Assembly: GCA_017456145.1 (NCBI GenBank) | Contig: JAFTJZ010000091.1 | Coordinates: 18,519-82,518 of the forward strand | DNA: 64,000 nt | Origin: Clostridia bacterium | GTDB taxonomy: Bacteria; Bacillota; Clostridia; Oscillospirales; CAG-272 | Direction of reading: 5' to 3' | Shown: positions 1 through 16,989 of the stretch, piece after piece | Layout of the letters: each line of letters opens with the position of its first letter | Position numbering within the stretch: position 1 is the first letter of the stretch | Notes under the pieces: model-generated | What the model was told of the DNA's origin: nothing | Databases searched by the model: none | Seen by the model: the letters and a program-made list of their open reading frames with translations, nothing else | Translations under genes and position numbers: made by a program

Positions 1-189
1 ATCCAACTCCTCATATTTTTTTGTTTTATATTCCTTACGCACTTCATCGCTGATTCCCCTCGTAGGCGTCGGAACATAATTTACAAAGGTGAATCCTGCT
101 TTTAAATACGCTTCGTTCAAATCCTTTGTCAGATGAGAACTAGAAATCTGTTCCGGATAAAAATAGCCCGGCAACTTCAATATACGCAT
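1..189 (-). CDS. Glycosyltransferase (GT4-like), N-terminal part; runs off the window edge
   Basis: Manual translation MRILKLPGYFYPEQISSSHLTKDLNEAY...VPTPTRG, typical of a GT4 N-terminus; GGAGG RBS at 196-200; lies in a polysaccharide operon. Confidence 0.7.
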   Translation of the reverse strand, partial: MRILKLPGYFYPEQISSSHLTKDLNEAYLKAGFTFVNYVPTPTRGISDEVRKEYKTKKYEELD

Positions 190-345
190 AACCATCCTCC
201 ATAATTAAGCAACCTTTTTTTGCCATGCTATTTGTAATGACATATTCTCTTCTAGAATAATTTCAATCAAAGAGACGTGGTCACTCATTCCATCACAGTT
301 AGCATTAACTTCGGAAAGTAAAATCCTATTTGAGCATTGCACATA

Positions 346-1356
346 TTAAAACTGAAATTTAGTTCCTTTCCTTTGCTCTATGCACTTATCGTAAATGTAT
401 TTTGCAAAGGAAACATCAACAAATGCTAATCCCACTGAACAGAAGTAAATGAACTCTTCATCATTTTCTCGCCCTAGTCTTCTGCCAGTCACTATCTCAT
501 CAAGATCACTATAGATCTCATCGTCTGTCAGCACTCCTTCCTTGTACATACGACTAATCGTTTGCGTTCTATGCTTGATGCATTCCCAATCATCACAGAC
601 AATTTTTGATGCTAGTTTCGGAACAGCATACTCATCTTCCCATCCAGCAACATGGATGTAAAATGCTCCCTTCTTGATCCATTTTGCTTTTAATATGGGT
701 TCCTGTCCGCTTATTGCAGTTACAACGATGTCCGCATCGATTACCGCCTTCTCATAATTGTCCTGACAATCAATAAACTCCATATCAGGATGTAGAAGTT
801 TTTCTTCTTCAATAAAGCGTTCAGTAGATCCATCAGCCAACGAAGACACATAACACGTTTTGATCTCAGGTCTGACGATCTTCACCATATCAAGATGCCG
901 CCTGGCCTGTTGTCCCGCACCGATAAATCCAATTGTCTTGGCATCTTCCCGTGCCAAATACTTTGCAGCAGTTGCACCGATAGAAGCAGTGCGTATTTCC
1001 GTCAGATACCCTGCATCCATCACAGAGAGTGTATGTCCGTGCGTCAGTTCTGACAAAATCATCGTTCCAGTTACATTTCTATATCCTTCCTTAGGGTTTT
1101 CCGGAAATACAGCAACCCACTTGACACCATAAACCTTATCTTTAAGCAAGGCACCAGGCATACAATTAATTCGATTCTGTGTTTCTTCATCAAAGATAAC
1201 AGATATCTTATCTGGAAGAAGAATCTCACCGGAAATCTTCTTTTCAAATGCAGCTTCAATTATGCCAATTGCTTCAGGTAAATTTCTGGATAAAATACTT
1301 TTTTGATCATTTGACGATATTAACAGCGTCGTGGGATTGCTTTTCATCTTTATCAT
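346..1356 (-). CDS. Ornithine cyclodeaminase / mu-crystallin family protein
   Basis: GVKWVAVFPENP, LTEIRT, GFIGAGQQA NAD-binding motif, FCSVGLAFVD. Confidence 0.9.
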   Translation of the reverse strand: MIKMKSNPTTLLISSNDQKSILSRNLPEAIGIIEAAFEKKISGEILLPDKISVIFDEETQNRINCMPGALLKDKVYGVKWVAVFPENPKEGYRNVTGTMILSELTHGHTLSVMDAGYLTEIRTASIGATAAKYLAREDAKTIGFIGAGQQARRHLDMVKIVRPEIKTCYVSSLADGSTERFIEEEKLLHPDMEFIDCQDNYEKAVIDADIVVTAISGQEPILKAKWIKKGAFYIHVAGWEDEYAVPKLASKIVCDDWECIKHRTQTISRMYKEGVLTDDEIYSDLDEIVTGRRLGRENDEEFIYFCSVGLAFVDVSFAKYIYDKCIEQRKGTKFQF

Positions 1357-2669
1357 CTCTCTCCTAAATTGTTTTTTAGTTTTAGTTGGCTTGTTTTAAG
1401 CATTCTAAGGGTTAAATCGACTCCCGTTCCATTGAAAAATTTTAGTTTTTTATGTAATTCTTCAATGGTATCCTTGAGTTCTGCTTCTGTTTCAAAAACA
1501 AAGTGAGCAAGTGCAACGACCTGTGAAAAAGAGCCAGTATCCTTTATTTGAGACCCCTCACCGTGAATAAGCGGTAGCGTAACTATATTTGTCATCTGCC
1601 GCGCTTCTTCAATCCCCTGCACCTTTTGAATTGTACCTGCACCACAGTAAAATGGATACACAGCATAAAATCGCTTTTTAGGAACAGTGTCAGGAATCAG
1701 CGAAGTAAAGCCATTTGTTTTACTCGTACCTGTTAGTGCGTAATATATATCTGCCGCTACTTGATTGATGCCATGTTTATAATCTACAAAGTAGATTGAT
1801 GCTGAACCTCCATATCGGAAACCGACTTCATTGAAATAGAAACTATCTCCATGGTGGAAAACTTCAATCCAGAATGAACCTTCCTTGATTCCGATCGACT
1901 GAATCATTCTTTCAATGCGTTCTTCATACTGCGCTCGGAAAGACTCCGATAGGTCGCTTTCGCAAATAAACAAACCGCCAACGTAGCTTCCTTGTTTCTC
2001 ATAACGAACAGGATACTTATCTTCTAGACCAGAGAATAAAAGCTTGCCTTCACTAACAGTATAGAAAACAACCACTCCATCATTAGGAACAAACTTTTCA
2101 ATAATAACACTACCTGTCGGTGACTCTTTAGCTGCTACGGCATAACCTTTCTTCAATTCATCAATGTTATGGCAGACAGAAAAACCGCTGCTCCCACAAC
2201 CATCTGTTGGTTTGGTGATGACGGGATATTCATTTTCCGGAACAGCATTTTCGATTCCCTTATCAATCATATAACGAGGAACAACTGGCAAATCATGTTG
2301 AATACACAACTCTTTAAAATTGCTCTTGTTCTGCAAATATTCCCACTGGTCATGTGTACAATAGCAGGGTAAGCCGAGTTCATTAATATACTGGCAGGCT
2401 GCAGATATGACTGCCTCGCTCCCCCCCATGTACACACCATCAATTTCGGCATCTTTAATTAACTTCTTCATTGCATCTTGATCAGTTGAGTTAACGCTAT
2501 ATTTTTCATCAGCGATCTCAAAAATACCAGCTGTCTGATCATTACCAGTTGCAATCAAAGTAATATCATTCTCGTCAGCAAAATCCTTTATTGCATTTTT
2601 CCAAAGGCTACCTCCAAGAATTAACAAACGCTTCCCACTTAATTCAGGATATTTCATCTTATACCTCAC
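1353..2669 (-). CDS. ATP-grasp domain protein
   Basis: YPVITKPTDGCGSSG, IIEKFV, FNEVGFRYGG; AT-rich coding sequence. Confidence 0.85.
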   Translation of the reverse strand: MRYKMKYPELSGKRLLILGGSLWKNAIKDFADENDITLIATGNDQTAGIFEIADEKYSVNSTDQDAMKKLIKDAEIDGVYMGGSEAVISAACQYINELGLPCYCTHDQWEYLQNKSNFKELCIQHDLPVVPRYMIDKGIENAVPENEYPVITKPTDGCGSSGFSVCHNIDELKKGYAVAAKESPTGSVIIEKFVPNDGVVVFYTVSEGKLLFSGLEDKYPVRYEKQGSYVGGLFICESDLSESFRAQYEERIERMIQSIGIKEGSFWIEVFHHGDSFYFNEVGFRYGGSASIYFVDYKHGINQVAADIYYALTGTSKTNGFTSLIPDTVPKKRFYAVYPFYCGAGTIQKVQGIEEARQMTNIVTLPLIHGEGSQIKDTGSFSQVVALAHFVFETEAELKDTIEELHKKLKFFNGTGVDLTLRMLKTSQLKLKNNLGER

Positions 2670-3841
2670 TCAACTATAATTTTCACCATCTGCAGCACTC
2701 GTTCACAAACTTTCACTGCTTCTTCAGCATTGTCCGCTTGTGCAATGACAAAACCAACTCGGTCTGTACTGCTGCCGATATCACCAACAGTATCGCCTAC
2801 TTGCTTCACAAAGGTGATCTCCTGTACACCATACAACATCTCAGCTTCTTCTACACCACTGATCTCACGGATCACACCATGCGGTGCATTAAAGTAACGA
2901 ATCGCAGAACCATTCCACAATTTCTGTTCCAGATCCGGATCTTCCCCGAGTGCAATCTTGATTGTATTACCTACCATATCAATACCGGTAGACAGAGGTA
3001 CGAGATGCGTAGTGATGCAGTCGCCACCCATACGCGCCCCAAGTTCGACCATCTTCGGCCCGTTCTTTGTGAGAATGATCTCCACATGAGCCGGTCCATT
3101 CTGGATTCCCACAGACAGTGCCGCACGGCTTGCCAGATCACGGATTGCATCCTGTGCTTCTTCCGGCAGACGTGAGGGCTGAGAATGTCCCATTTCCACA
3201 AAGTGAGGCGCACCAGTCGTCAGCTTGTCTGTAATCTGAAGGACGTGAGGTGCACCGTGAGAAACCATAACTTCTACGCTGACCTCTGGTCCCTGCATAT
3301 ACTCTTCCATGATGACATCACCGCGCCGACCGTTTTCAGAGGAATAGCTTAATGCTTCTGCCAGCTCATCTTCGTTATGCACCAGCATAACTCCGCGGCT
3401 GCCGGAATTGTCTGTAGGTTTCGTAATCAGCGGAAACGTAAAAGTACCCGGCGTAGGTTTTGTACCGCCAGGGATAATCTGATACCATGGATGTTCAACT
3501 TTCGCTGTTTCAAAAGTCTTGATCATCTCGCCCTTATCTGTCGCTTTAACAGCAGAGTCGTATGCCAAGCCTACCAGACCCAGCTTTTCACAAGCATACG
3601 CCAGTGAACGCATAGGCATATCAGTAGCAAGAGTCATAATGCCATCAGCCTTGAACTCCTTTGCTGCCCGATATACGCCTTCTTCATCGATAGTCGAGAC
3701 ATTGTAATACTCGTCAGCCAGTGGAATACCCACAGCATTCGGGTTGTAATCCGCTACCGCTACATACAGCCCCAGTTCCTTCGCTTTACGGATAGCAGGT
3801 ACCTGCAATACCGAAGCCCCAATTATAAGTAACCGCTTCAT
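2666..3841 (-). CDS. ATP-grasp domain protein (carboxylate-amine ligase-like)
   Basis: FPLITKPTDNSGSRGV, MEEYMQGPEVSVE, VELGARMGGD. Confidence 0.9.
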   Translation of the reverse strand: MKRLLIIGASVLQVPAIRKAKELGLYVAVADYNPNAVGIPLADEYYNVSTIDEEGVYRAAKEFKADGIMTLATDMPMRSLAYACEKLGLVGLAYDSAVKATDKGEMIKTFETAKVEHPWYQIIPGGTKPTPGTFTFPLITKPTDNSGSRGVMLVHNEDELAEALSYSSENGRRGDVIMEEYMQGPEVSVEVMVSHGAPHVLQITDKLTTGAPHFVEMGHSQPSRLPEEAQDAIRDLASRAALSVGIQNGPAHVEIILTKNGPKMVELGARMGGDCITTHLVPLSTGIDMVGNTIKIALGEDPDLEQKLWNGSAIRYFNAPHGVIREISGVEEAEMLYGVQEITFVKQVGDTVGDIGSSTDRVGFVIAQADNAEEAVKVCERVLQMVKIIVE

Positions 3842-4497
3842 ACCTGTACCTCATCCTTCTTTTCAGCAACAGTTTCGTTTGCTGTTCCAGCACTCTTATC
3901 AATACTTTCCTGATAGTTGATGTTCTTAGAGCCAAGAACACTCAGAACTGTCTGAATCAGAATCTTCACATCGAAAATGAAAGATACATGATCCACATAG
4001 TAGCAGTCGTTTTCAAACTTCTGCTCCTGTGGGATGGAATTGCGGAAATATGCCTGCGAATATCCAGTAATACCCGGACGAACTGTGAGACGCTTTTTGC
4101 GTTTTTCATCAAACTCTTCATAATTACCAGTCGCCAGATTCGGACGCGGTCCAACAAAACTCATGTCACCGATCAGCACATTCAGAATCTGCGGCAGCTC
4201 GTCAATGGAAAGTTTACGCATGATACGACCGATCTTTGTTACACGGGGGTCATCGTCTCCAGAATATGTAGAACCGTCTGCATTCTTCAGCACAGGTGCA
4301 TTCACCTTCATCGAACGCAGCTTAAACATTTTAAAGACCTTACCATTCATGCCCCTGCGAGTCGCATTGTAAAACACCGGACCTCTGTCTGTCAGGTAGA
4401 TAATTGGAGCGAAGATCAGAATTACAAGACCTACGAAAGGAAGTGCAATCAGGGAAATGATTATATCCAGTAATCGCTTAACAAACTTCTTATACAT
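3838..4497 (-). CDS. Bacterial sugar transferase (initiating phosphoglycosyl transferase, PglC-like)
   Basis: KRLLDII, FKLRSM, DDPRVTKIG, SIDELPQ, MSFVGPRP, RPGITG. Confidence 0.95.
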   Translation of the reverse strand: MYKKFVKRLLDIIISLIALPFVGLVILIFAPIIYLTDRGPVFYNATRRGMNGKVFKMFKLRSMKVNAPVLKNADGSTYSGDDDPRVTKIGRIMRKLSIDELPQILNVLIGDMSFVGPRPNLATGNYEEFDEKRKKRLTVRPGITGYSQAYFRNSIPQEQKFENDCYYVDHVSFIFDVKILIQTVLSVLGSKNINYQESIDKSAGTANETVAEKKDEVQV

Positions 4498-4508
4498 GCT
4501 TCAGTACC

Positions 4509-5834
4509 TCAATTGAATTCCTTCATAACTTCCTTCAGCATCTCGCAAACATACTCAATGTCTTCATCAGTCAATTTCGTATGCAGCGGCAATGTGATCA
4601 GATTCTTGTAGTAATCATAGCTATTTCCATACAGCTCAATCCCACCACTGCTTTCCCTATACGCCGTCATCATCGGCAAGGGCTTGTAGTGGACGTTCGT
4701 AGCCACACCGCGCTCAGCCATCTTCTCGATGATCACGTTACGCTGTTCCTCGTCTATTCCAAGAACACGGATCAGGTAGAGATGATTAGAACTATCCATG
4801 AAATCAGTGTGGTGAACGAGGTGCTTGATACCCAGCCCATCACAGGTCTCATCATAACGTTTCATCATCTCTACACGGCGATCCAGCATCCCCTCATAAC
4901 GGTCAAGCTGTCTGAGACCAATTGCAGCCATAATATCCGTCATGTTGCACTTATACCAGGGGCCGATGATGTCATACTCCCAAGCACCGATCTTGGTCTT
5001 CGCCAAAGCGTCCTTGTTCTGACCATGCAGAGACAACAGCTGGAAGAACTTATAGATTTCCTTATCTTCCACTCCAGAGATTTCCAGCCAAGCACTTGCA
5101 CCGCCTTCGGCGGTTGTAAAGTTCTTCACAGCGTGGAAAGAGAAAGAGGTGAAGTCAGCAATAGCACCGCAATACTTCTTCTCGCCCTTAAACATACGAC
5201 TTGCACCAAGACTGTGGGCATCATCAGCAACGACTGCTACACGACCAATAGCCTTCTGGATACGTGCGGACAGATCATTCAGCGGATTGCCATCAGAGAC
5301 CATGGGAGTGAAGAGCGCCTTCTTCTTCTCCACGATCTCAAAGATCCTCTCATAATCAGCCACGATACCGCCGAGATCAACGACAATAATCGCCTTGGTT
5401 TTCTCGGTGATTGTTTTTTCCAGCTTCGCATAGTCCATCTCAGGCATGTGCGTTACTGGATCGCCATCCTTCTGGATATCCACGAACTTGACAGTAGCAC
5501 CACAGTGGATAGCAGCAGAAGCGGAAGCGGTATATGTATAAGCCGGAACGATAACTTCGTCACCGGGGCCAACGCCAAGAATGCGAAGGTTCAGCTCCTC
5601 AGCTGCTGTTGCGGAGTTGAGGCACACAACCTTCTGGCTGTACTTAGCGATTGCTTCCTTCGTGGTGCAATCCACATCAGTTCTGCCAGTTTCAATATAA
5701 GCCGCCAGACGGCACTCCAGCATTTTCGTTCTCGGACCAGTAGTGATCCAACCAGAACGCAGAGCCTCGTTTACTTCAGCGATTTCAAGTTCTGAAATAT
5801 CCGGCGGGCTAAAACTGATAACTCTCTTCTCCAT
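4509..5834 (-). CDS. DegT/DnrJ/EryC1/StrS PLP-dependent sugar aminotransferase
   Basis: SGWITTGP, DDAHSLGA, SFHAVKNFTTAEGG, KCNMTDIMAAIG. Confidence 0.95.
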   Translation of the reverse strand: MEKRVISFSPPDISELEIAEVNEALRSGWITTGPRTKMLECRLAAYIETGRTDVDCTTKEAIAKYSQKVVCLNSATAAEELNLRILGVGPGDEVIVPAYTYTASASAAIHCGATVKFVDIQKDGDPVTHMPEMDYAKLEKTITEKTKAIIVVDLGGIVADYERIFEIVEKKKALFTPMVSDGNPLNDLSARIQKAIGRVAVVADDAHSLGASRMFKGEKKYCGAIADFTSFSFHAVKNFTTAEGGASAWLEISGVEDKEIYKFFQLLSLHGQNKDALAKTKIGAWEYDIIGPWYKCNMTDIMAAIGLRQLDRYEGMLDRRVEMMKRYDETCDGLGIKHLVHHTDFMDSSNHLYLIRVLGIDEEQRNVIIEKMAERGVATNVHYKPLPMMTAYRESSGGIELYGNSYDYYKNLITLPLHTKLTDEDIEYVCEMLKEVMKEFN

Positions 5835-5906
5835 GTTCCTCTACTCCCCAAATTGTGTAAGTAATGTGTGTTTTTTTTGAATGGTCTTGTGGTCATCTCA
5901 GTTAAT

Positions 5907-5971
5907 TGCGTTATACTGCTGCGTTATACTGCTGCGTTATACTGCTGCGTTATACTGCTGCGTCATACTAC
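5907..5971. repeat. 13-bp tandem repeat (TGCGTTATACTGC)x4 plus one degenerate copy
   Basis: Exact copies at 5907, 5920, 5933, 5946; TGCGTCATACTAC at 5959. Confidence 0.95.
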
Positions 5972-6356
5972 TTCATCATCCACTGTCCATCAAATGAGAC
6001 GAATGACGCAGAGGTTATTTTCTTTGTACATAAGTGACTCAAAGGGGTCTGGTTTTTCCTGTGTGAATCTCCCTGCGGTTTGGCACTTTTTTAGGTGTCA
6101 TTTTTATTATTACTTGCACAATGTAATGTGCGTTATACACGCGTATTTTTGTGCAGTTTACGACAAAATCCAGACTTTGTCTGTCGCCGACTCAAAGGGA
6201 TTAAAAGCGTTTTATTTCGCGGCTCAAAAGGATTTTTAACTTATAGCATTGTACCTCATGAGGATGGTGTTCACTACATCACTCAGATATAGATATCCCC
6301 GTTTCGAGGATCAGAAGGTTGTTGTTCACATTGTCCACATTGTTTTCATTTCTCAC

Positions 6357-8465
6357 TTACACTCGCGCTGCGGGATTCCGCCCCTCCCCCACCCCGATCA
6401 GTGAGAGCTTTTCTCGTCGAGCCTCGGACATGGTTGGCAGGGCGTCGCGTTGGCGGCGGATCCAGCGGCCGAGGCGGCAGCCGTCCTCGGTGATATAAGC
6501 GACGGGAATATTGAGGTCACCGTGCTTACGCTTATAGGCGCAGGCAGCGGCGTAGGAGCGCTCCCATGTGGTATCGTGCTTGTTTTTCCACGAAAACCCG
6601 AGCTCGGCGAGCAGTGTAAGCTGCACCTCGCTCAAGGGGGCGCGCTTGGAGTTGGCGTTGTTCTTTGCTGTCCGCAGGCTGGCGAGCCATGCGCCAAGAC
6701 GGATGCCGTCCTCTGTGACATAGTACAAAGGCACATCCAGATTTCCGTAGGTGCGATGATAGTCGACAGCAGCGTGGTAATTCTTCTCCCAAAGGTAGTC
6801 AGGAACGTCCCACACCATGCCGATTTCGTCCAATTTTCGGATACGCGCCTCGGTCAGATAGGCACTTTGAATTTTATTTTTACGGTAAGAGCGCAGCTGC
6901 GCGATCCAGCGACCGAGCGCCACGCCGCGGTAATTGTTATGATTGATATTGACCAGCAGGTCGCCGTGCTCGGCGCGATACGCCACAGCGGCTGCGTAGT
7001 TCTTCTCCCAAGCGAGGTCACGAACGCTCTCCCAGCGCATCCCAATGGCGTTCAGCTTTTCAATCTGCGCGTCGGTCAGAATGCCGTTGACCTTGCCCTC
7101 GTGCACCAACCGCTGTGTATTCAACCACACACCAAGGGTCAACCCATCGGCGGTGACATAACGCTTTGGCACGTCGAGATTGCCGTTTTCCTCATAAAAA
7201 TATTTGGCAGCATCATACATCAGCTCCCAGGATGCGGTGAGCGTATCATTGAGCCGATCAAACAGTGCGATACAATCCCGCACCTCGTCGATGACCTGAA
7301 AATGCTCGGTGACGATCTCGCCCTCCAGCCCCAGCGAACGATAATAAGCCGTCGCGATCTCCATCTCCTCCTCAACCGCACCAATGCTGTAAAGGTTTTC
7401 GATGTTGAGCACAATGTCGAAGATAACGGCGTTGTTCTTTTTGCTCGCGGACAACGCGCGCCCGACCTGCTGCTTATATATAATGGGAGAAATGGTCGGA
7501 CGCAGCAGAATGACGCCGCTGACGTCGTCGACATGGATGCCCTCGTTGAGCATATCGATGCAGAAGAGCAGCTTGAGATGATCGCTGTCGTCCTGCTTGA
7601 AGGAGACAAAAGCATGGCTGGTCAGCGGGTCGTCGGAGTATGCCATATAGATATGCGGCGCGGGGTCAACCTTGGTAAACCACTCTCTCGACTTCTCGAC
7701 CATCTCGCACAGATGCTCGTAGTTGGCACAGAAAACGATATACTTCCCTGCGCGCTCACTCATGTGCTTGTCGAAAATGACGTCCAGCCCGTCCGCCTTA
7801 TCCAGCGCACGGCGCAGCGCCTCAAGAATTTTCTCACCCCCGTCGCGTACAGCTTTACTCTTTGCCGAGCGTACACGGGCTTGGTATTTTTCCAGATCCT
7901 TTTGGTAGGAAAAGACCGAAAGCACGTACTTCGGTGCGGTCAGAATACCGCGGACGATAGCCTCACCCAGTGTCATTTCGGAGGCGACGTTGCCACAGAA
8001 CAGCTCGTCGGACATATCCCGTCGGTTGTCCAGATAACGCACCGCCGTCGCGGAAAGCCCCAGCACGGGCGCGTCGGGATAAGCGGTAAGCAGGGTACTC
8101 ACACCCTTCCCCCACATCTGCGCACCACAGCGATGGAACTCGTCAAGCACGATGTAATCGGGCTTGATCAGCGCGATCTCGTCCTCATTCATGTTCATCA
8201 GCTTGGCGTAGGTAAAGAATTTTATATTTTCGGGCACGAATCCATCCGACACGGCAGCCAAGTTTTCGAGCTGGGTCTTGAAAATGTACTCGGACGGCGA
8301 GAGCCAGCAGACCGATGCCTCGGGAAAATCCTCGCACAGCTTGAATGCGATGAACGATTTTCCCGTTCCCGTCGGATGCACCACCGCCGCGCGCCCCACC
8401 TCATGCAGCATCGAAAGAGCCGACGCATACGCGTCTGCATTGTGTTTGTACAACATAATGCCCAT
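6357..8465 (-). CDS. SF2 DEAD/DEAH-box helicase with C-terminal helicase-associated (HA) repeats
   Basis: HPTGTGKS, LDEFH, LSAT, EGIHVDDV, QQVGRAL; about four WExxY...GxLxV...LGxW repeats. Confidence 0.9.
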   Translation of the reverse strand: MGIMLYKHNADAYASALSMLHEVGRAAVVHPTGTGKSFIAFKLCEDFPEASVCWLSPSEYIFKTQLENLAAVSDGFVPENIKFFTYAKLMNMNEDEIALIKPDYIVLDEFHRCGAQMWGKGVSTLLTAYPDAPVLGLSATAVRYLDNRRDMSDELFCGNVASEMTLGEAIVRGILTAPKYVLSVFSYQKDLEKYQARVRSAKSKAVRDGGEKILEALRRALDKADGLDVIFDKHMSERAGKYIVFCANYEHLCEMVEKSREWFTKVDPAPHIYMAYSDDPLTSHAFVSFKQDDSDHLKLLFCIDMLNEGIHVDDVSGVILLRPTISPIIYKQQVGRALSASKKNNAVIFDIVLNIENLYSIGAVEEEMEIATAYYRSLGLEGEIVTEHFQVIDEVRDCIALFDRLNDTLTASWELMYDAAKYFYEENGNLDVPKRYVTADGLTLGVWLNTQRLVHEGKVNGILTDAQIEKLNAIGMRWESVRDLAWEKNYAAAVAYRAEHGDLLVNINHNNYRGVALGRWIAQLRSYRKNKIQSAYLTEARIRKLDEIGMVWDVPDYLWEKNYHAAVDYHRTYGNLDVPLYYVTEDGIRLGAWLASLRTAKNNANSKRAPLSEVQLTLLAELGFSWKNKHDTTWERSYAAACAYKRKHGDLNIPVAYITEDGCRLGRWIRRQRDALPTMSEARREKLSLIGVGEGRNPAARV

Positions 8466-8494
8466 TTTCGACTCCTTTCGCGCATTTTCGGGGG

Positions 8495-8519
8495 TGTAAT
8501 GAAGTATAACACTTCAAGA
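8495..8519 (+). repeat. Left 25-bp inverted repeat TGTAATGAAGTATAACACTTCAAGA (candidate recombination site)
   Basis: Exact reverse complement of 8884-8908; internal dyad TGAAG-TATAACA-CTTCA. Confidence 0.9.
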
Positions 8520-8567
8520 TTGCATAAAAATGGGTACAGAGTCCCATTCGCATACAATGACACCGTA

Positions 8568-8596
8568 ATTATAACACAAATATGCCAATTAGTCAA
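8568..8596 (-). promoter_or_regulatory. Sigma-A promoter inside the IR-flanked segment, pointing toward the helicase and the leftward polysaccharide operon
   Basis: Minus strand TTGACT-17 nt-TATAAT with extended -10 TG. Confidence 0.8.
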
Positions 8597-8883
8597 TGCT
8601 TTACGGGCAAAAAAGATAAAAAAATAGTAAAATATTTTTGTCACAGCAGGAAACATCTTGCTGAATACGCACGATATACCTCCAATCATGACAAAAAATG
8701 ACGCTTTTCGCAGTTGTCGGAGTCTATTCATGGTCTTTCATGGTCAGGCGGGAGAACAAACGCCGTAAGACTATTTACTCGCTGCGTATAATCGATTCAT
8801 AGTCAAAATATGGTCAAATATCATAATGTTGCCACCGAAAATTCTTGAAATCCAAGGAAAATTCAGTGGTTTTTGTTTATTCG

Positions 8884-8908
8884 TCTTGAAGTGTTATACT
8901 TCATTACA
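8884..8908 (-). repeat. Right 25-bp inverted repeat TCTTGAAGTGTTATACTTCATTACA
   Basis: Exact reverse complement of 8495-8519. Confidence 0.9.
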
Positions 8909-8975
8909 TTTCCCGATGGTTTTGTCGGGAATTTTTTATTTTGCACGAAAAGTACGATAAATATCAAATTGTATC

Positions 8976-9004
8976 TTGACATTTGCGTTGATTTATGTTA
9001 TAAT
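8976..9004 (+). promoter_or_regulatory. Sigma-A promoter of the kinase operon
   Basis: TTGACA-17-TATAAT with extended TG. Confidence 0.85.
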
Positions 9005-9038
9005 ACCGTGGAAAACAAAACATAAAGGAGCTTATGTC

Positions 9039-10451
9039 ATGGAATACATGGACGTCAAACGTGCGGCAGAGGTCTGGTTGTTATCCGAACGCAGGATCAC
9101 TGCCTTATGTCGCAACGGTCGGATCGTGGGTGCCAAGAAAAGCGGAAAAACATGGATGATCCCCGATGACACCAAAAAGCCCTTAGATGGACGGACACGC
9201 GAATATGCAAGCGCGAACGAGCAGGACGCATCCGTTGCGCATACAACAACGCGATACACCACCGAGGGCGCGACGGGCAAGGTAGTCGATGCTTTTGAAA
9301 ATACATATTTACGCGCCCCCGAGCACGTTGCCTTCACGCCCTACCGCATCTGCCCGATCGGTGCGCATTCCGATCACAACTTGGGCAAGATCACAGGCTT
9401 TGCCATCAATAAGGGCATCCATATCGCCTACGGTCCCAAGCAAAACGGCGTGATTGAGATCGCCTCGTTGCAGTTCCCCAAGCGGGCACAGTGGCACGTT
9501 GCCTCCACGCCCTCGGTCAAGCAGGACGACTGGGCAGACCATCTGCGCGGCGCAACCATCGCGCTCAACAAGCGTTATCCGCTGCGCACGGGGCTTTGCG
9601 CCATCGTGGACGGCGAGCTGCCCATCGGTGGCCTTTCCTCCTCGGCGGCGGTCATCATCACCTTCCTCTCCGCCCTCTCCCACATGAACGGCATCAAGTT
9701 GACCGAGCGAGAGCTGATCGACATTTCGATGGAGGCAGAAAACCAATACGTCGGCGTTTCCTGCGGCAAGCTGGATCAATCCTGCGAGGTTTACTGCCGC
9801 AAAGGACATCTGCTTTATCTTGACACCAAAGACGACACTTATGAGCTGATCCCCCAGCATCCGAGCATGAAACCCTACAAAATTGCCATTTTCTTCTCGG
9901 GTATCGAGCGCACGCTGGCGGGTTCCGCCTTCAATATGCGTGTAGATGAGGCGCGCAGCGCGGCCTACGCACTCAAGGCGTTGGCCGGCCTTCCTTACGG
10001 CAAGTTCAATGAGACCAATCTGCGCGACGTTCCCCGTGAGATCTTTGAGCAGTATAAGGACAAGTTGCCAAAAAGTTGGGCAAAGCGCGCCGAGCACTGG
10101 TACACCGAATTTGACCGCGTGCAAAAGGGGGCTGAGGCGTGGCGCAGAGGCGACATTGAGGCCTATGGTAAGCTGTCCTTTGAAAGCGGCCGTTCCTCGA
10201 TCTACAACTGGGAGACCGGCTCGCCCGAGCTCAAAAAGCTGTATGATATCATGACCGAGACCGACGGCATCTACGGCGGCCGTTTCTCTGGCGCGGGCTT
10301 TAAGGGCTGCTGCATGGCGTTGATCGATCCCGCCTATGAAGATGCGATCAAGGAGAAGGTCACCCGCGAATACCTCGCCGCCTTCCCGCATCTTGAGGGC
10401 AAATACTCCGTTCACATCTGCGAGAGCGCGGACGGCGTGAAATTGATTTGA
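9039..10451 (+). CDS. GHMP sugar kinase (galacturonokinase-like) with N-terminal HTH_17-like DNA-binding domain
   Basis: PYRICPIGAHSDH, GGLSSSAA, GKLDQ, GRFSGAGFKGC; N-terminal AAEVWLLSERRITALCRNGRI..A.K.GKTWMIP; AAGGAG RBS before ATG 9039. Confidence 0.85.
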   Translation: MEYMDVKRAAEVWLLSERRITALCRNGRIVGAKKSGKTWMIPDDTKKPLDGRTREYASANEQDASVAHTTTRYTTEGATGKVVDAFENTYLRAPEHVAFTPYRICPIGAHSDHNLGKITGFAINKGIHIAYGPKQNGVIEIASLQFPKRAQWHVASTPSVKQDDWADHLRGATIALNKRYPLRTGLCAIVDGELPIGGLSSSAAVIITFLSALSHMNGIKLTERELIDISMEAENQYVGVSCGKLDQSCEVYCRKGHLLYLDTKDDTYELIPQHPSMKPYKIAIFFSGIERTLAGSAFNMRVDEARSAAYALKALAGLPYGKFNETNLRDVPREIFEQYKDKLPKSWAKRAEHWYTEFDRVQKGAEAWRRGDIEAYGKLSFESGRSSIYNWETGSPELKKLYDIMTETDGIYGGRFSGAGFKGCCMALIDPAYEDAIKEKVTREYLAAFPHLEGKYSVHICESADGVKLI

Positions 10452-10452
10452 C

Positions 10453-10614
10453 GCAGGGCTCTGCCCTGCACCCGCCAAAGAACCTTTTGAAAAAGGTTCT
10501 TTGGAATCTCCAAAACCTTTCAAAAAGGGGTTTTGCGTTCTATGGTTTATTTGATAAAAATTTATAAAAGTTCTTGAAGGGTCAAGGGAAACTTCTTTCA
10601 AGAAGTTTCCCTTG
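10453..10614. repeat. REP/REPIN-like palindromic doublet, copy A
   Basis: GCAGGGCTCTGCCCTGC hairpin, CCAAAGAACCTTTT-GAA-AAAGGTTCTTTGG-type hairpin, CAAAACCTT...AAGTTCTTGAAGG, CAAGGGAAACTTCTT-TC-AAGAAGTTTCCCTTG hairpin. Confidence 0.85.
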
Positions 10615-10625
10615 AAAAAATAACT

Positions 10626-11363
10626 ATGAAATGTTTAATTTTAGCAGCGGGATACGCGACGCGTCTTTACCCGCTGACCGAAAATTTTCCTAAGCCCTTG
10701 CTTGAGGTTGGGGGAAAGACCATTCTGGATTGGTTGATCGACGACATTGACACGCTGGGTGCGGTCGACGAGTACGTTGTCATTTCCAATCACAAGTTCG
10801 CACATCATTTCGACGCGTGGGCTGCTAAAAAGCCCCAGAAGGTCACCGTCGTGGACGACGGCACAAGCAGCAATGAGACTCGCCTTGGCGCGGTACGCGA
10901 CATTCAGTTTGCCATCGACCGTCTGGGCTTGGATGAGGAGGTTCTGGTCATTGCGGGGGATAATCTGTTGGATTTCTCCCTGACCGAATTTATCCAATAT
11001 GCCAAGCGAAAGCAGGCATCTGCCATTATGCGATATTATGAGCCGCGCCTGCAAAAGCTGGTCAAGTGCGGTGTGGTCACAGTAGACCAAGACGATAAGA
11101 TTCTCGAAATGACCGAAAAATCTCCCACACCTGCGACCAACTGGTGCTGCACGCCCTTTTATTATTTTACCAAGGAGGATGCGCGTCTGATCAGTAAGGG
11201 GATCGAGGCAGGCTGCGGTGTGGACGCCCCCGGCAACTACATTGTCTGGCTCTGTCAGCAGACACCTGTCTACGCCATGCAGATCCCCGGGAAGAGATAC
11301 GATATCGGAGATCTCGAAAGCTATGAAAAGGTACAAAAGGAGTATAGAGGAATCATATGTTGA
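10626..11363 (+). CDS. Sugar-1-phosphate nucleotidyltransferase
   Basis: LILAAGYATRLYPLT..PKPLL, VIAGDN, RYDIG. Confidence 0.9.
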   Translation: MKCLILAAGYATRLYPLTENFPKPLLEVGGKTILDWLIDDIDTLGAVDEYVVISNHKFAHHFDAWAAKKPQKVTVVDDGTSSNETRLGAVRDIQFAIDRLGLDEEVLVIAGDNLLDFSLTEFIQYAKRKQASAIMRYYEPRLQKLVKCGVVTVDQDDKILEMTEKSPTPATNWCCTPFYYFTKEDARLISKGIEAGCGVDAPGNYIVWLCQQTPVYAMQIPGKRYDIGDLESYEKVQKEYRGIIC

Positions 11364-12430
11364 CACCCAATATTGATTTGAAAAACAAAACCGTTCTGGT
11401 CACCGGCGCGGCCGGCTTTATCGGCTCAAACTTGGTCATGGAGCTGCTGCGCACCGTGCAGAGTATCAAGATCGTCGGACTTGACAATATGAACGATTAT
11501 TACGACGTTTCGATCAAGGACTATCGCCTTGGCGAGATTGATAAGCTGGCTGCCGAGCACCCCGATTGTTCTTGGACGTTCGTCAAGGGGAACCTTGCCG
11601 ATCGCGCGCTGATCGACCGTCTGTTTGAGGAATACAGCTTTGCTGTCGTCGTCAATTTAGCAGCACAGGCGGGCGTGCGCTATTCCATTACCAATCCCGA
11701 CGTCTATATTGAGAGTAACATCATCGGCTTTTACAATATCCTTGAGGCTTGCCGTAACCACCCGGTCGAGCATCTGGTTTACGCCTCCTCCTCATCGGTT
11801 TACGGCACCAACAAGAAGATTCCCTACTCTACCGACGATAAAGTCGACAATCCTGTCAGCCTTTACGCCGCAACCAAAAAGTCCAATGAGCTGATGGCGC
11901 ACTCCTACTCCAAGCTCTATAACATTCCCTCCACGGGCTTGCGTTTCTTCACGGTCTACGGTCCCGCAGGCCGCCCCGACATGGCCTACTTCGGCTTTAC
12001 CAACAAGCTGCGCAAGGGTCAGACCATCGAGATCTTCAACTTCGGCAATTGCAAGCGCGATTTCACCTATGTGGATGATATCGTCACAGGAGTCAAGCAC
12101 GTCATGCAGAACGCCCCCGAAAAGCAGAACGGCGAGGACGGTCTGCCACTGCCTCCTTATCGCGTCTACAACATCGGCAACAACAATCCCGAAAACCTTT
12201 TGGATTTCGTAACCATTCTGCAAGAGGAGCTGATCCGCGCCGAGGTGTTGCCTGCCGACTACGACTTTGAGGCGCATAAAAAGCTGGTTCCCATGCAGCC
12301 CGGCGACGTGCCGATCACCTACGCCGACACCTCGGCGCTGGAGCGCGATTTCGGTTTTAAGCCCTCCACCTCGCTGCGCGACGGACTTCGCCGCTTTGCC
12401 GAGTGGTATAAACAATTTTATCGGGTATAA
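11357..12430 (+). CDS. NAD-dependent epimerase (UDP-glucuronate 4-epimerase-like)
   Basis: TGAAGFIG, NLAAQAGVRYS, YAATK, RFFTVYGPAGRPDMA. Confidence 0.9.
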   Translation: MLTPNIDLKNKTVLVTGAAGFIGSNLVMELLRTVQSIKIVGLDNMNDYYDVSIKDYRLGEIDKLAAEHPDCSWTFVKGNLADRALIDRLFEEYSFAVVVNLAAQAGVRYSITNPDVYIESNIIGFYNILEACRNHPVEHLVYASSSSVYGTNKKIPYSTDDKVDNPVSLYAATKKSNELMAHSYSKLYNIPSTGLRFFTVYGPAGRPDMAYFGFTNKLRKGQTIEIFNFGNCKRDFTYVDDIVTGVKHVMQNAPEKQNGEDGLPLPPYRVYNIGNNNPENLLDFVTILQEELIRAEVLPADYDFEAHKKLVPMQPGDVPITYADTSALERDFGFKPSTSLRDGLRRFAEWYKQFYRV

Positions 12431-12634
12431 CTTACCACCCCTTACACAAAACTAAATATATTGCATTACGCAGTTGCCATAGGAGACACCATAGGGACTG
12501 TCGCTTGCAACCTCATAACGCCGTGCGCGGCATCAAAGACAGATGCCGTCGCTCCGCAAACATATCAAATCATGAAAGGCACGGAGAGACGTGTTCCGAC
12601 GATGCGTCCCACGTCTCCCCATCAGGTATTATGT

Positions 12635-13819
12635 ATGAAGATTGCAGTCGCAGGAACCGGCTATGTCGGTCTTTCTATGGCAATTTTGTTATCGCAACAC
12701 CATAACGTCACCACCGTTGACATCGTCGAAGAAAAGGTAAAGATGATCAACGCAAGAAAATCCCCGATCGCAGACCGCGAAATCGAGGAATATCTTTCCA
12801 CCAAGGAATTGGATCTGAGCGCCACCACCGACGGCACTGCCGCATATCGGGATGCCGAGATGGTCATCATTTCCACCCCGACCAACTACGATCCCTCCAA
12901 GAATTATTTTGACACCTCCAGTGTAGAGAGCGTCATCGCGCAGGTCATCGAGGTCAATCCCGACGCCGTCATGATCATCAAATCCACCGTCCCCGTCGGC
13001 TTTACCGAAAAGGCACGGGCTGATTTTTGCTGCGATAACATTCTCTTCAGCCCCGAATTTCTACGCGAGGGACGAGCGCTTTATGACAATCTCTACCCCA
13101 GCCGTATCATTGTCGGCGTTCCCGTTGGCAACAAACGGCTGGAAAAGGCTGCACAGACCTTTGCCGCACTGCTCAGGGAGGGAGCCGTCAAGGAGGACAT
13201 CGAGGTCCGATATATGAACCCGACCGAGGCAGAGGCAGTCAAGCTGTTCGCCAACACCTATTTGGCACTGCGCGTTTCCTTTTTCAATGAGCTGGACACT
13301 TACGCTGCCGTGCGCGGGCTTGACACCAAGTCCATCATAGAGGGCGTCGGGCTGGATCCCCGCATCGGTACGCATTACAACAATCCCTCCTTCGGCTACG
13401 GCGGTTATTGTCTCCCCAAGGACACCAAGCAGCTGCTCGCCAATTACAACGACGTGCCGCAGAATATCATCTCCGCCATCGTAGCCGCCAACGGTACTCG
13501 CAAGGATTTTATCGCAGATCAGATCATCGCCAAGCACCCTAAAACGGTCGGCATTTATCGTCTGACCATGAAGGCGGGCAGCGATAACTTCCGCCAGTCC
13601 TCTATCCAAGGCGTTATGAAACGCATCAAAGCCAAGGGCATCGAGGTCATCATCTACGAGCCTACCATGCGTGACTCCGCCTTTTTCAACAGCCGCGTCG
13701 TCCGCGATCTTGCCGTCTTCAAGCAGAGCGCCGATGTCATCCTTGCCAACCGTTATCACGACGACCTTGCCGATGTGTTGGATAAGGTATATACCAGAGA
13801 TCTGTATTTCAGAGATTGA
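12635..13819 (+). CDS. ugd: UDP-glucose 6-dehydrogenase
   Basis: [47 protein letters not shown]. Confidence 0.95.
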
Positions 13820-13956
13820 CGCATATGCAAAGCCCACCGATATTTTGATCTGCGAACGGCGCGTGTCACGTTGCGTTGCGCAAATGTAACACGCTGGTGG
13901 TTGATTTATTCTGTCTTTTCTGATACAATAGTCTCACATCAGCTCTGAAAGGATGG

Positions 13957-14430
13957 ATGATCATGACCTTCTCCGAAAAAATTTTATCCTGTCGCAAAAA
14001 AGCAGGCTTATCTCAAGAGGCACTGGCGGAACGACTCGGCGTTTCCCGACAGGCAATCTCCCGCTGGGAAATGGGCAATACGATCCCCGATGCGGAAAAT
14101 CTTTTGCAGCTATCCCAACTGTTTGGCGTTTCGGTGGATTATCTGCTCCACGACGAACAAGGACAGGAGCCGAGCGTACCAAGTACGCTGAATCCATCGT
14201 CGTATGCCATGTCCCCCGCGCCGCCTGCCGCAGGTCGTGGGCTTTTACTCTTTGCTGTCGTAACGGCGATTCTCTTTGCGATTCTCTCGCTGATCCTCTC
14301 GCTGCGAAACAGACGGATCGCCGCCGCTCTGCACAGAAAATATTCGGCTGCCTACGCCGCGACCCTGATCGGACTCTGGAAATATATCACAGGCACGGTC
14401 GCCTTGCTGTTCTTTCTGATGCTGATCTGA
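13957..14430 (+). CDS. XRE-family HTH regulator with two C-terminal transmembrane segments
   Basis: GLSQEALAERLGVSRQAISRWE; two hydrophobic stretches. Confidence 0.85.
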   Translation: MIMTFSEKILSCRKKAGLSQEALAERLGVSRQAISRWEMGNTIPDAENLLQLSQLFGVSVDYLLHDEQGQEPSVPSTLNPSSYAMSPAPPAAGRGLLLFAVVTAILFAILSLILSLRNRRIAAALHRKYSAAYAATLIGLWKYITGTVALLFFLMLI

Positions 14431-14451
14431 CCATACTTGCCTATCATAAGC

Positions 14452-14488
14452 AAAACACCACCTCCGACACAGGAAAGTGGTGTTTTTT
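14452..14488 (+). terminator. Intrinsic terminator
   Basis: AAAACACCAC...GTGGTGTTTTTT stem-loop with U-tract. Confidence 0.65.
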
Positions 14489-14850
14489 GTATGCCGCTTT
14501 ATCCGCTTGCGGCAGTGTGTAATCGGCGCAAAGAGCGCCGATGTGGCAGCGATGACGGGCGTGCCGAGCATCCCCTCCACACCGCTTTCACCAAAAGCAT
14601 CTGCCCATGCATCGGATGCCCCGGCACAAGGCTTGAGGCTTATCCCGCTCTCGATGGAGATCCGACAGATCCGTCGCACTGCAACCGTGCCCCCAAGCAT
14701 GACCGCGCTCCATTTGGGTGATCATTTTAAGGCAAAACGAAGATTATCCTCCGCAAATGCAAAAAATACGTTAAAGCTCCCAATTATTTAACATAATAAT
14801 AGCAGATCCCAATGATGCTTGGAGCTTGGTTGCATGAAAGGATGGCAAAA

Positions 14851-15009
14851 ATGAACGAAAAAGCAAAAAAACTATCCCCCGTTCGCGTTTGTGAGGATAT
14901 TTGGTTATATTATTTCAATCAGTATCTGTTTGGCAAGGGGTTGATCACTGAACAAGAGTATAACCGCATGACCGCCATGATCGCGTCCGGCAAGAGGCCG
15001 AAGTGGTAA
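14851..15009 (+). CDS. Small SHOCT-like protein upstream of the recombinase (candidate accessory/directionality factor)
   Basis: LYYFNQYLFGKGLITEQEYNRM (GxITxxEY motif); AAAGGA RBS 8 nt before ATG 14851. Confidence 0.65.
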   Translation: MNEKAKKLSPVRVCEDIWLYYFNQYLFGKGLITEQEYNRMTAMIASGKRPKW

Positions 15010-15115
15010 CAGAAGGGCTTTATCGCATTAGCAAAGGCGCGAACGCCTGCCCTTCCTTTTCGATCCATGGGGATGATGTCAAATCCTGCTCTATTCTAAA
15101 ATATCCGTTCCCCTC

Positions 15116-15168
15116 TTGCAATATCGTTTCGTTTGTGATATAATAGAGGATATTGATCATGATATTGC
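15116..15168 (+). promoter_or_regulatory. Sigma-A promoter of the recombinase, overlapped by inverted GCAATATC/GATATTGC boxes
   Basis: TTGCAA-17-TATAAT (15116-15144); boxes at 15118-15125, 15149-15156, 15161-15168. Confidence 0.7.
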
Positions 15169-15196
15169 GAACTTATTGATGATCGGAGGTATTCAG

Positions 15197-16870
15197 ATGG
15201 ATCTTTTAAGCATTCGCGCGCTGCTGCGCACCAAGTCGATCTACGAGACACCGTTGCGGGTGACCTATTACGCGCGGGTATCGTCCGAGAGCGACGAGCA
15301 GCTCAATTCACTGAGCAATCAGGTGGCATACTACAGCAATTTCATCAAGGAAAAGAAGGCATGGGAATACGTGGAGGGCTACATCGACGAGGGCATTTCG
15401 GGCATCTCGACCAAAAAGCGCGATGCCTTCAACCGCATGATCGCCGACGCGCAGGAGGACAAATTCGACCTGATCATCACCAAGGAGATCTCACGCTTTG
15501 CCCGCAACACACTGGATTCCATCAAATTCACCCGCGACCTGCTCGCCTGCGACGTCGGGGTGCTGTTTCAGAACGACGGGCTTTGCACCTTTGACGAGGA
15601 CAGTGAGCTGCGGTTATCCATCATGTCCTCCATCGCGCAGGACGAGCTGCGCAAGCTCTCCTCGCGCGTCAAATTCGGGCATCAGCAGGCGATCAGATCC
15701 CACGTGGTGCTGGGCAACAGCCGCATCTTCGGCTATCGCAAGGACAACAAGCATTTGGTGATCGATTCGGAGGAGGCGGTCATGGTGCGCGAGCTGTACG
15801 AGCTATATGCCACCGATCAGTACAGCATGAAACAGATCGAGACCATCTTCTGGGAGCGCGGCTACCGCAATCACAACGGAAAAAGGATCGCCCACACAAC
15901 CATGTCAGGTATGATCTCCAACCCGAAATACAAGGGCTACTATGTCGGTAACAAGGTCAAGGTGGTGGATATGTTCACCAAAAAGCAAAAGTTTCTGCCA
16001 CCCGAGGAGTGGGTCATGTTCAAGGATGAGACGGGCGAGCTCGTTCCCGCCATCGTCACAGAGGAGCTGTGGGATGCGGCGAACGCCATTTTGCGCCGCA
16101 GGAGCGAGGATGTCAAGAACCGACAGGGTGTGTGCAATCACGCCAATCTTTTGACGGGTAAGATGTACTGCGCGGCGTGTGGTGCGGCCTATTATCGGCG
16201 CGAGTCCAGGAGCCGCGTGACAGGCGCGGTCAACTCCAAATGGGTCTGCTCGGGCAAGATCAAGGGCGGCGCCGATTCCTGCCCCTCCTTTCCCATCTAC
16301 GAGGACGAGATCAAGCCGATTCTTTATGAGGCATTTCGGGAAACCGAGGCAGACGTTGAGGCGATCATCCGTCAATATACTGAGATGTTCCGTGAGATCG
16401 CAAGCGCGGACGACATCGGAGAACAGATCGCGAGTGCCAAAGCACGATTGGAGATCATTCAGAAAAAGAAGAACAAGCTGCTGGAGTACAATGTGACAGG
16501 GCAGATATCCGACCGCGAATACATGGAGATGAGCCGCGCCTGTGAGCGGGAGAGAGCCGAGCAGGAGGAGACGCTGCATGAGCTTGAGGAGCAGCTGCTC
16601 TCGCAGGACGAGTTCCGCAAACGCATGAACGACATTGAAAATGCCCTCCGCACAGCGCAAGCCGAGGCGACGACGGGATTGATCACTCCCGAATTTGTCA
16701 ACAAGTATATCGACAAGATCGTTGTCACGCCCGTGGACGAGGCTACGGCACAGCTGACCATCCGCATCTTTACGGGAGAGACCACCGAAAAGTATCTGCA
16801 AAAGCTTGAAAGTCGTGCGGGACACACGTTCAAGAAGATGGTTGAGTCCTACGAGAACTCCATCAAATAA
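15197..16870 (+). CDS. Large serine recombinase (resolvase + recombinase + zinc ribbon + coiled coil) with SASP-like terminal 12 aa
   Basis: YARVSS catalytic Ser, DEGISG, KEISRFARN, FGY, CAACG...WVC...C zinc ribbon; GGAGGT RBS. Confidence 0.95.
   Translation: MDLLSIRALLRTKSIYETPLRVTYYARVSSESDEQLNSLSNQVAYYSNFIKEKKAWEYVEGYIDEGISGISTKKRDAFNRMIADAQEDKFDLIITKEISRFARNTLDSIKFTRDLLACDVGVLFQNDGLCTFDEDSELRLSIMSSIAQDELRKLSSRVKFGHQQAIRSHVVLGNSRIFGYRKDNKHLVIDSEEAVMVRELYELYATDQYSMKQIETIFWERGYRNHNGKRIAHTTMSGMISNPKYKGYYVGNKVKVVDMFTKKQKFLPPEEWVMFKDETGELVPAIVTEELWDAANAILRRRSEDVKNRQGVCNHANLLTGKMYCAACGAAYYRRESRSRVTGAVNSKWVCSGKIKGGADSCPSFPIYEDEIKPILYEAFRETEADVEAIIRQYTEMFREIASADDIGEQIASAKARLEIIQKKKNKLLEYNVTGQISDREYMEMSRACERERAEQEETLHELEEQLLSQDEFRKRMNDIENALRTAQAEATTGLITPEFVNKYIDKIVVTPVDEATAQLTIRIFTGETTEKYLQKLESRAGHTFKKMVESYENSIK
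16818..16870 (+). mobile_element. Putative att junction plus 3' half of an alpha/beta SASP (ssp) gene fused in frame to the recombinase
   Basis: Tail KKMVESYENSIK* (16832-16870) matches the clostridial SASP C-terminal pattern GGxMV-KKMIExYE. Confidence 0.65.
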
Positions 16871-16961
16871 GTTTCCCCCTCGTCATTGGCCGATCTACCC
16901 TTTGCACTGCGGCGCGTTGACAAAGCCGCGTGTCGGATGGTAATTCTGCCCACCCTCTACG

Positions 16962-16989
16962 GGAGAGAAGGACCTCCCTTCTCTCCTTT
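16962..16989 (+). terminator. Intrinsic terminator after the recombinase/SASP tail
   Basis: GGAGAGAAGG-acctc-CCTTCTCTCC-TTT. Confidence 0.75.

Follow-up and report, generated by a model that had tools for sequence, protein, structure and literature searches.

An island family of gut Clostridia whose serine integrase very probably targets, and exchanges its C-terminus with, a spore protein gene

Within a stretch of 64,000 nucleotides from the genome of a Clostridia bacterium (GCA_017456145.1; the whole stretch is referred to here as the window), a gene for a large serine recombinase, Int, runs without interruption into the 3' end of a gene for a small acid-soluble spore protein (SASP; gene ssp) of the alpha/beta type. 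This recombinase is very probably the integrase of a family of islands that targets one site in the alpha/beta SASP gene, with the window holding the right-hand attachment junction, attR. The attachment site of the element, attP, would lie inside the 3' end of int, and the crossover would take place at an AA dinucleotide in the first lysine codon of the SASP sequence QMV-KKM. Upon integration, Int would lose a native tail of 33 residues and gain, in the form found in the window, the last 12 residues of the SASP, and the 5' part of the SASP gene (profile position 1 to about 51 of 59) would gain the native 33-residue tail of Int. Excision between the directly repeated junctions would then make the SASP gene whole again and leave the excised element with an Int that has its native tail. 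In most genomes searched, the SASP profile matches no gene other than the targeted ssp, and the family is widespread in gut Clostridia and apparently undescribed.

The recombinase gene and its SASP-derived end

The open reading frame of Int starts with an ATG at 15197, stops at 16868-16870 and encodes 557 amino acids with the C-terminus SRAGHTFKKMVESYENSIK. Its product matches the Pfam families Resolvase (E 2e-26, residues 24-166), Recombinase (1e-19) and Zn_ribbon_recom (9e-11) and, among the PHROGs, PHROG 95, an integrase (E 3e-109). The columns R27-V28-S29-S30 are invariant across 52 aligned sequences, and long helices occupy residues 368-491 in the AlphaFold model of the Int homologue at locus L112. 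By its catalytic, Recombinase and zinc-ribbon domains and its 2-bp crossover, as deduced by comparison of sequences, Int is classed as a large serine recombinase, and the full reading frame with its three domains agrees with the preliminary description of the window, made from the letters of the DNA, in which this recombinase was called complete. The same description reported that phage and conjugation genes are absent nearby, which holds for the neighbours scanned with Pfam and PHROGs, a set made up of polysaccharide and sugar-nucleotide genes, a helicase, an XRE regulator and a sigma-like gene.

Residues 1-545 are assigned to the element, and the last 12 codons (16832-16867) together with the stop to the 3' end of a host alpha/beta SASP gene. 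The single SASP of same-genus relatives ends in GSVGGQMVKKMIESYENSLKK, with which 10 of the 12 tail residues in the window are identical. At the DNA level, a match of 37 nt at 89% identity with four same-genus SASP loci begins at about window position 16830; further matches of the tail extend over 47 nt at 85% (a fifth same-genus locus) and 40 nt at 90% (a locus of the same family). When the SASP of a relative was searched against the whole assembly by tblastn, the window tail was the best match (E 0.004), the remainder being weaker and unrelated. The gene tyrS lies 3' of the tail, and the same order is found beside an intact ssp in two relatives (G006 and G010). The SASP profile PF00269 has no match in the window's genome at E values up to 10, the 12-residue tail being too short for it, and the assignment of the tail rests on alignment with the SASP ends of relatives and on synteny, not on the family profile. 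On these grounds the earlier proposal that the Int C-terminus is half of a SASP gene is upheld.

On the element side of the junction, the P half-site can be aligned both to the P arms in 25 relatives (consensus GTCGTACGGGTCACACGTTC) and to the attP that occurs naturally at L112. The terminator said to follow the tail is less certain: an 11-bp hairpin with UUUAU after it is present (z -4.2 over a 133-nt stretch), but a consensus terminator scan made no call there. In the same-genus genome G005, a G+C-rich inverted repeat and a T run come after the same junction and were read by eye as a terminator. The coordinates of these and the other features are collected in Table 1.

Table 1. Features around the recombinase gene, in positions of the window
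Feature	Position	Strand	Basis
Probable element interior or cargo (polysaccharide and sugar-nucleotide genes, helicase, XRE regulator)	1..14811		extent inferred, left end not found
Conserved 65-aa protein, candidate recombination directionality factor	14812..15009	+	directly upstream of Int; homologues, motif, predicted complex
Promoter-like site for Int, sigma-70-type (TTGCAA, 17 nt, TATAAT, with TG)	15116..15144	+	top site of scan, 10/12 matches
Conserved leader motif CATGATATTGCGAACTT	15158..15174	+	between -10 hexamer and ribosome-binding site; by eye, no statistics
Int, chimeric large serine recombinase gene	15197..16870	+	open reading frame, Pfam, PHROG 95, homologue tails
P half-site of attR (CGTGCGGGACACACGTTC), element-side arm inside the Int reading frame	16814..16831	+	aligns with P arms of relatives and attP of L112
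Central AA dinucleotide, inferred crossover	16832..16833	+	AA shared in 25/25 attL/attR pairs; symmetry centre of G014 attP; X3 contigs with the intact ssp of a relative
Alpha/beta SASP gene 3' end, host DNA (KKMVESYENSIK plus stop)	16832..16870	+	residue and DNA identity, tyrS synteny
G+C-rich hairpin, then UUUAU; possible ssp terminator	16961..16987	+	fold

Upstream of Int, the promoter architecture recurs in most of about 75 distinct upstream regions of Int loci (by eye, uncounted), and so, again by eye, does the leader motif, with a family consensus of about ATGATAnAACGAACTT. At many int loci (L049, L053, L057, L069 and others), TTCGAC or TTCGAT stands just 5' of the -35 hexamer, which we take to resemble the reverse of a Spo0A box; it is not found in the promoter of the window.

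Reciprocal tails and complete elements in relatives

In a scan of one genome per species, 418 stretches were confirmed as encoding relatives of Int, and 80 loci were kept. The preliminary description had proposed a survey of homologous recombinases for tails of the KKMIExYE type, and such SASP-type tails proved to be the rule, being present at 79 of the 80 loci and in all 120 best homologues among the matches listed. In these 120 homologues the tails follow the pattern R-x-G-x-x-x-KKM[IV]-x-x-[YA]E... and their ends vary by lineage (ESYENSLKK, EAYEQGMQ, EKYENDLKSQG and others). A SASP profile search in 35 Int-carrying genomes (sets of 5 and 30) gave matches in 27 (5/5 and 22/30), every one of them cut at or before profile position 52 and none intact; the other 8 genomes, all in the second set, gave no match.

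The truncated SASP genes carry the counterpart of the exchange. Of 30 such loci, 29 have a SASP 5' half whose reading frame runs on into a conserved tail with the motif K[KN]M-x-P[VI]R[TS]-..F.R..R....GH....[VI].Y...... followed by a stop; the thirtieth, L155, has only a SASP fragment (profile 2-26) without the tail motif. The length of the tail is exactly 33 codons in 25 of 26 non-redundant tails, and its pN/pS is 0.54 in frame but 0.84 and 1.19 when the frame is shifted, the synonymous sites being nearly saturated. Chimeric ssp 5' halves of the kind that had been predicted are thus found in relatives, not in the window's genome.

The position of the crossover follows from 25 genomes with both junctions. 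In all 25 attL/attR pairs AA is common at the same position, and in 6 it is AA alone. The arms of attP form an imperfect inverted repeat, both in the attP of genome G014, as rebuilt on paper, and in that of L112, and AA is the centre of the former. The undivided host site, attB, has the form ...ATGGTy-AA-GAAGATGG..., and in the 5' halves of relatives TGTCCCG or variants of it come after the junction as the P' arm, which is where a mirror motif had been expected. The crossover, earlier placed near TCAA at 16830-16833, may hence be narrowed to the AA at 16832-16833 within it. As the frame of Int is the SASP frame across the junction, integration exchanges the C-terminal tails, and one exchange inside both reading frames would rebuild the SASP and swap the C-terminus of Int, as the preliminary description had it.

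One of the 80 loci, L112, has an Int with the native tail contiguous (...GHISKKMCPTRT...GH.V.LSYIAAVCV, then stop), which makes it a natural attP, and its genome, G066, has a full SASP match (profile 1-59). L112/G066 appears to be the natural unintegrated form; the excision event itself was not observed, and the L112 contig (15,410 bp) has no terminal repeat. In addition, the Int tail on a viral-collection contig (L131) is of native type by eye, with the PIRT motif and equal length after it.

Ten elements were verified with both junctions on one contig and one strand, nine of 10,271-17,761 bp and that of G014 of 30,438 bp; larger ones, up to 45-47 kb, are suggested by coordinates alone. The two halves of the interrupted ssp are in direct orientation in all ten, 10-30 kb apart on the same strand, and the window's genome has the 3' half only. 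The preliminary description had left the choice between excision and inversion to the orientation of the partner, and the direct orientation in relatives points to excision. In G014, which belongs to the same family and another genus, the SASP 5' part (profile 1-51) reads ...GGQMVKKM and then gives way to foreign sequence. An Int of 64% identity, encoded on the other strand, points towards this 5' part, and the 3' portion of ssp (KKMIEKYERDLASK, then stop) is found 30.4 kb downstream of the 5' part and on the same strand as it. This element is inserted in the same ssp site in the opposite orientation to the window's type. It is located at L022 10018-11830 and L033 about 1480-1545 (G014:C32, about 87.0-117.7 kb); its Int ends ...RTGDIFLTI, a C-terminus encoded antisense to the 5' half of ssp, and the central dinucleotide along the int strand is TT.

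The only recurrent genes are those for Int (11/11 elements compared) and for the small protein encoded upstream of it (6/11 by blastp). The cargo differs from one element to the next: a Wadjet-like cluster at L120, a sortase pilus at L069, a MobA/MobL relaxase and a Fic protein at L112, and a glycosyltransferase cluster in G014. Judged by gene content, the family is a small integration module with variable cargo, not a prophage.

The small protein of 65 residues has tblastn homologues at 57 of the 80 Int loci and a core motif WLxYFN...G.I[ST]E, and it matches no Pfam or PHROG family. The predicted complex of Int with this protein scored 0.76, the best control 0.00; among solved complexes 58 of 80 reach this mark, and among mismatched pairs 2 of 110, a calibration that is roughly valid here, as own alignments were used. 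The prediction runs agreed in at least 89% of contacts, with a partner pLDDT of at least 70, and the predicted contacts involve residues 380-402 and 479-504 of Int, which form the base of the coiled coil on the side of the zinc-ribbon domain. The junction between DBD2 and the coiled coil is where verified recombination directionality factors are reported to bind (PMC12286644). The 65-aa protein is accordingly placed in Table 1 as a candidate directionality factor, a role that the predicted complex supports.

Thirty relatives, 12 of them of the same genus, were compared separately for SASP and Int. A PF00269 match was obtained in 23 of the 30 and in 9 of the 12 same-genus genomes. A close Int (65-67% identity) occurs only in G005 and G014; the SASP match of G014 is truncated, and G005 is without a SASP match and has an Int that ends in the exact SASP C-terminus of the genus. 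G019 has only a 44%-identical recombinase and a SASP match over profile 1-57. The other 27 have full or near-full SASP matches or none, except for G016, whose match (profile 1-50) begins 44 bases from a contig end.

Beyond these relatives, curated plasmid and phage collections hold no close Int homologue; their best match is a phage-collection record with a 52%-identical Int, also SASP-tailed. The carrier of L120 is recorded as an isolate, Clostridiales bacterium NK3B98, and the source of homologue P0069 assigns this protein to Firmicutes bacterium ASF500. Two further observations concern irregular copies. The genome of L090 (G035) has four SASP matches, all truncated (profile 1-49, 1-27, 1-32 and 1-28, at C2:10548-10694, C2:14243-14323, C13:9509-9604 and C13:454-537), and may hold several ssp copies cut at other positions. 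On the viral contig L133, the frame of a 60%-identical homologue (int from 10001) stops after 188 residues, tblastn having matched residues 1-556, and this Int is probably a frameshifted copy.

Competing explanations and the state of the window's copy

What the islands do to their hosts is a separate question from where they insert. There is nearly an even chance that ssp is a mere landing place, the chimeric SASP being functional or its loss tolerated, and excision serving horizontal transfer only, unconnected with sporulation. Consistent with this, the crossover is near the C-terminus and the conserved GSVGGQMV region is kept; the replaced residues align with KRLVRLAQQNM of SspC in PDB 2Z3X; the Int promoter looks sigma-70-like and unlike the sporulation-sigma type, in a by-eye comparison with the consensus of the latter; and the cargo is typically accessory (Wadjet-like defence, sortase pilus, MobA relaxase, glycosyltransferases). 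Nothing direct stands against a harmless insertion, but the split gene is the sole SASP match in nearly every carrier, so its loss should be costly for spores, an expectation based on the role of alpha/beta SASPs in Bacillus spores. Both Spo0A and SpoIVA are encoded in the window's genome, and the organism is therefore likely to be a spore-former.

A second explanation, rather unlikely, concerns the window's copy alone, which could be a stranded remnant: a deletion or rearrangement would have removed attL and the 5' half of ssp, and perhaps most of the element with them. The small gene, Int and the 3' end of ssp would then remain beside ordinary chromosomal polysaccharide genes, in an organism without an alpha/beta SASP. 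It is raised by several results that weigh against the integrase reading as far as the window is concerned. The assembly (2.92 Mb in 117 contigs, 95% complete, 7.5% contamination) yielded no SASP 5' half with the PF00269 profile or by tblastn with the SASP of a relative, no attL when it was searched fuzzily at the DNA level for the attL and B arm that had been predicted, and no match to the native Int tail in a six-frame pattern search, so that the absence of a 5' half, earlier noted for the window, extends to the whole assembly. Contig C79, on which Int lies, reaches 33.7 kb to the left of it, and no attL was found on it. Window 9039-13823 is syntenic, at 73-80% identity in a genus-wide DNA search, with a chromosomal-looking contig of G008 that runs into housekeeping-type genes (PTS, GAPDH), and the ssp of G008 is intact. 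The neighbours upstream of ssp in relatives map to other contigs of the window's genome, and these are without ssp. Among contigs of the sequencing runs, record 13 of X2 bridges attR, and no excised junction or loose end at 16832 was present in X1 and X2, the two runs that contain the window, among the matches listed, contigs being apt to drop rare forms.

Two further results weigh against the integrase reading at the level of the native tail. A word-based search with the L112 tail returned no further native-tailed Int, its 5 matches all being proteins of 556 aa that cover only the pre-crossover half of the query region; and AlphaFold (52 full-length rows) gave no confident structure for the native tail, with pLDDT below 30 at residues 535-577.

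Three candidates for the missing parts were rejected. The single match of the attL and B-arm search, with 2 mismatches, lies on C38 and is without SASP context; C38 and C58, reached through the synteny of ssp neighbours, have ABC-transporter and flavodoxin-like genes and no ssp there; and in run X3, contigs with a match to the 3' end of ssp have GGCGGTCAGATGGTT immediately 5' of 16832, a loose end that is not an excision product and belongs to the intact ssp of a relative.

Against the loss of the remainder of the element, 8 of 30 other Int-carrying assemblies are also without a SASP match and all of the assemblies are fragmentary, which makes the absence of a SASP from this one weak evidence. 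Furthermore, the Int reading frame, the promoter-like site and the small gene are intact, the G014 element has homologous helicase and sugar-transferase cargo, and elements of at least 30 kb are verified, those of 45-47 kb being taken from coordinates alone. We infer that the attL of the window's copy would still exist outside the assembly. The preliminary description had named two findings that would speak against it, a genome without a truncated 5' half and homologues without recombined junctions; the assembly does lack the 5' half, whereas among homologues both recombined and unrecombined junctions exist.

The same uncertainty attaches to the DNA left of Int, which the preliminary description regarded as possible cargo. 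Besides the 65-aa reading frame, it encodes an XRE-type regulator, a UDP-glucose dehydrogenase, an epimerase, a nucleotidyl transferase, a GHMP kinase, a DegT aminotransferase, a sugar transferase and a helicase with HA domains. The helicase and the sugar transferase have counterparts in the G014 element (66% and 41.5% identity), and the glycosyltransferase cluster in that 30.4-kb element makes a polysaccharide cargo plausible, but the left end was not found, and the polysaccharide region is assigned to the element provisionally. Part of the polysaccharide cluster, at 10.5-21.5 kb of C79 (L162 10501-18000 and window 1-3000), has 35-43% G+C, compared with about 50-54% around it, which suggests a foreign origin of that part; GC content gave no clear left edge of the element on C79.

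A third and quite improbable explanation would make the island a developmental switch of the germline, or forespore. SASPs are forespore (germline) products, and excision confined to the mother cell would not restore the function of such a gene. During sporulation, excision in the forespore or predivisional cell would rebuild the only alpha/beta SASP gene and so allow the DNA of the spore to be protected, the excised circle would wait in the non-dividing spore, and the native-tailed Int, from its strong sigma-70-type promoter, would reinsert it at germination. The tail of Int would then be a memory of state, SASP-tailed when integrated and native-tailed when free, and would help to set the direction together with the small partner. 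Finally, that the KKMxExYE tail is ordinary conserved recombinase sequence, like a SASP by chance or convergence, is scarcely credible: nearly all homologues do keep the tail, but it varies by lineage as SASP C-termini do, the SASP genes of carriers break off precisely there, L112/G066 combines an intact SASP with a natural Int whose contiguous tail is a different one, and DNA identity to ssp starts at the AA.

On its right, Int is followed by a minus-strand sigma-70-like gene, a T-box leader and tyrS. The minus-strand gene (17058-18671), between the ssp 3' end and tyrS, encodes a protein of 513-537 aa with sigma-70 regions 2 and 4 in its N-terminal part and a long C-terminal part without an assigned domain; the ssp-tyrS interval of G006 gave no match to it. 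The T-box leader at 18784-19024 (95.4 bits, E 2e-20), upstream of tyrS (19070-20293), is an ordinary one. To the left, an intergenic repeat of about 70 nt with internal hairpins (10450-10526) has further copies in the window's genome on C18, C22, C35 (two), C57, C75 (two), C110, C114 and again C79, and copies with 82-94% identity occur in same-genus relatives as well. The repeat has no Rfam match and is not a tRNA, the tRNA scan having found none in window 1-20000.

Known systems and significance

Intervening elements of sporulation genes include skin in sigK (SpoIVCA), SPbeta in spsM (SprA/SprB) and gin in gerE (PMC5595907, PMC4191935). According to the portions of these two reports considered here, gin is 28.6 kb long and has no phage genes, some of the known intervening elements are non-phage and carry cargo, the named targets are all mother-cell genes, and excision is confined to the terminally differentiating mother cell; the term 'ssp' is absent from the main text of both. 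The islands that we read as SASP-targeting resemble skin, SPbeta and gin, so far as these are described there, in that an element with a large serine recombinase lies in the coding region of a sporulation gene, with halves in direct orientation, in the case of the islands as seen in relatives; precise excision, which rebuilds the reading frame in the known elements, is predicted to do so in the islands. They differ in having a forespore gene as their target and in a crossover that falls within the recombinase reading frame as well, so that Int is remodelled.

Other systems share parts of this design. In SSV-type archaeal tyrosine integrases, too, attP is inside int and integration partitions the gene; however, these belong to archaeal viruses, are tyrosine recombinases and have tRNA targets, and their int is disrupted by the split, whereas here a short in-frame tail is exchanged with the target gene. 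Integration-dependent immunity in mycobacteriophages likewise has attP in a coding region and C-termini that differ between the integrated and excised states and are used as a switch, but there a repressor is truncated and loses a degradation tag, and the host target is not a reciprocally swapped protein-coding gene. The domain set, the 2-bp crossover and the imperfect inverted-repeat att sites are those of the Bxb1 gp47, phiC31 gp3 and SPbeta SprB systems. As in the cases set out in the pertinent part of the directionality factor report, the small partner is predicted at the junction of DBD2 and the coiled coil (PMC12286644), but unlike gp47, gp3 and SprB the 65-aa candidate is in no described family of Pfam or the PHROGs. 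Full-text literature searches, which covered articles without their supplements, returned no ssp-splitting element and no serine integrase that exchanges its C-terminus with its target.

With mother-cell targets, excision costs the lineage nothing. The SASP family sits instead in a forespore gene that is the sole SASP match in nearly every carrier, and one of three things must hold: many gut Clostridia make spores without a normal alpha/beta SASP, or the chimeric SASP works, or there is germline excision and re-insertion. The in-frame exchange of C-termini would be a compact natural case of a protein with one form while its element is integrated and another while the element is free, and it bears on the control of direction by serine integrases and on their use as tools. 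The islands themselves would move defence systems, pili and polysaccharide clusters among gut bacteria.

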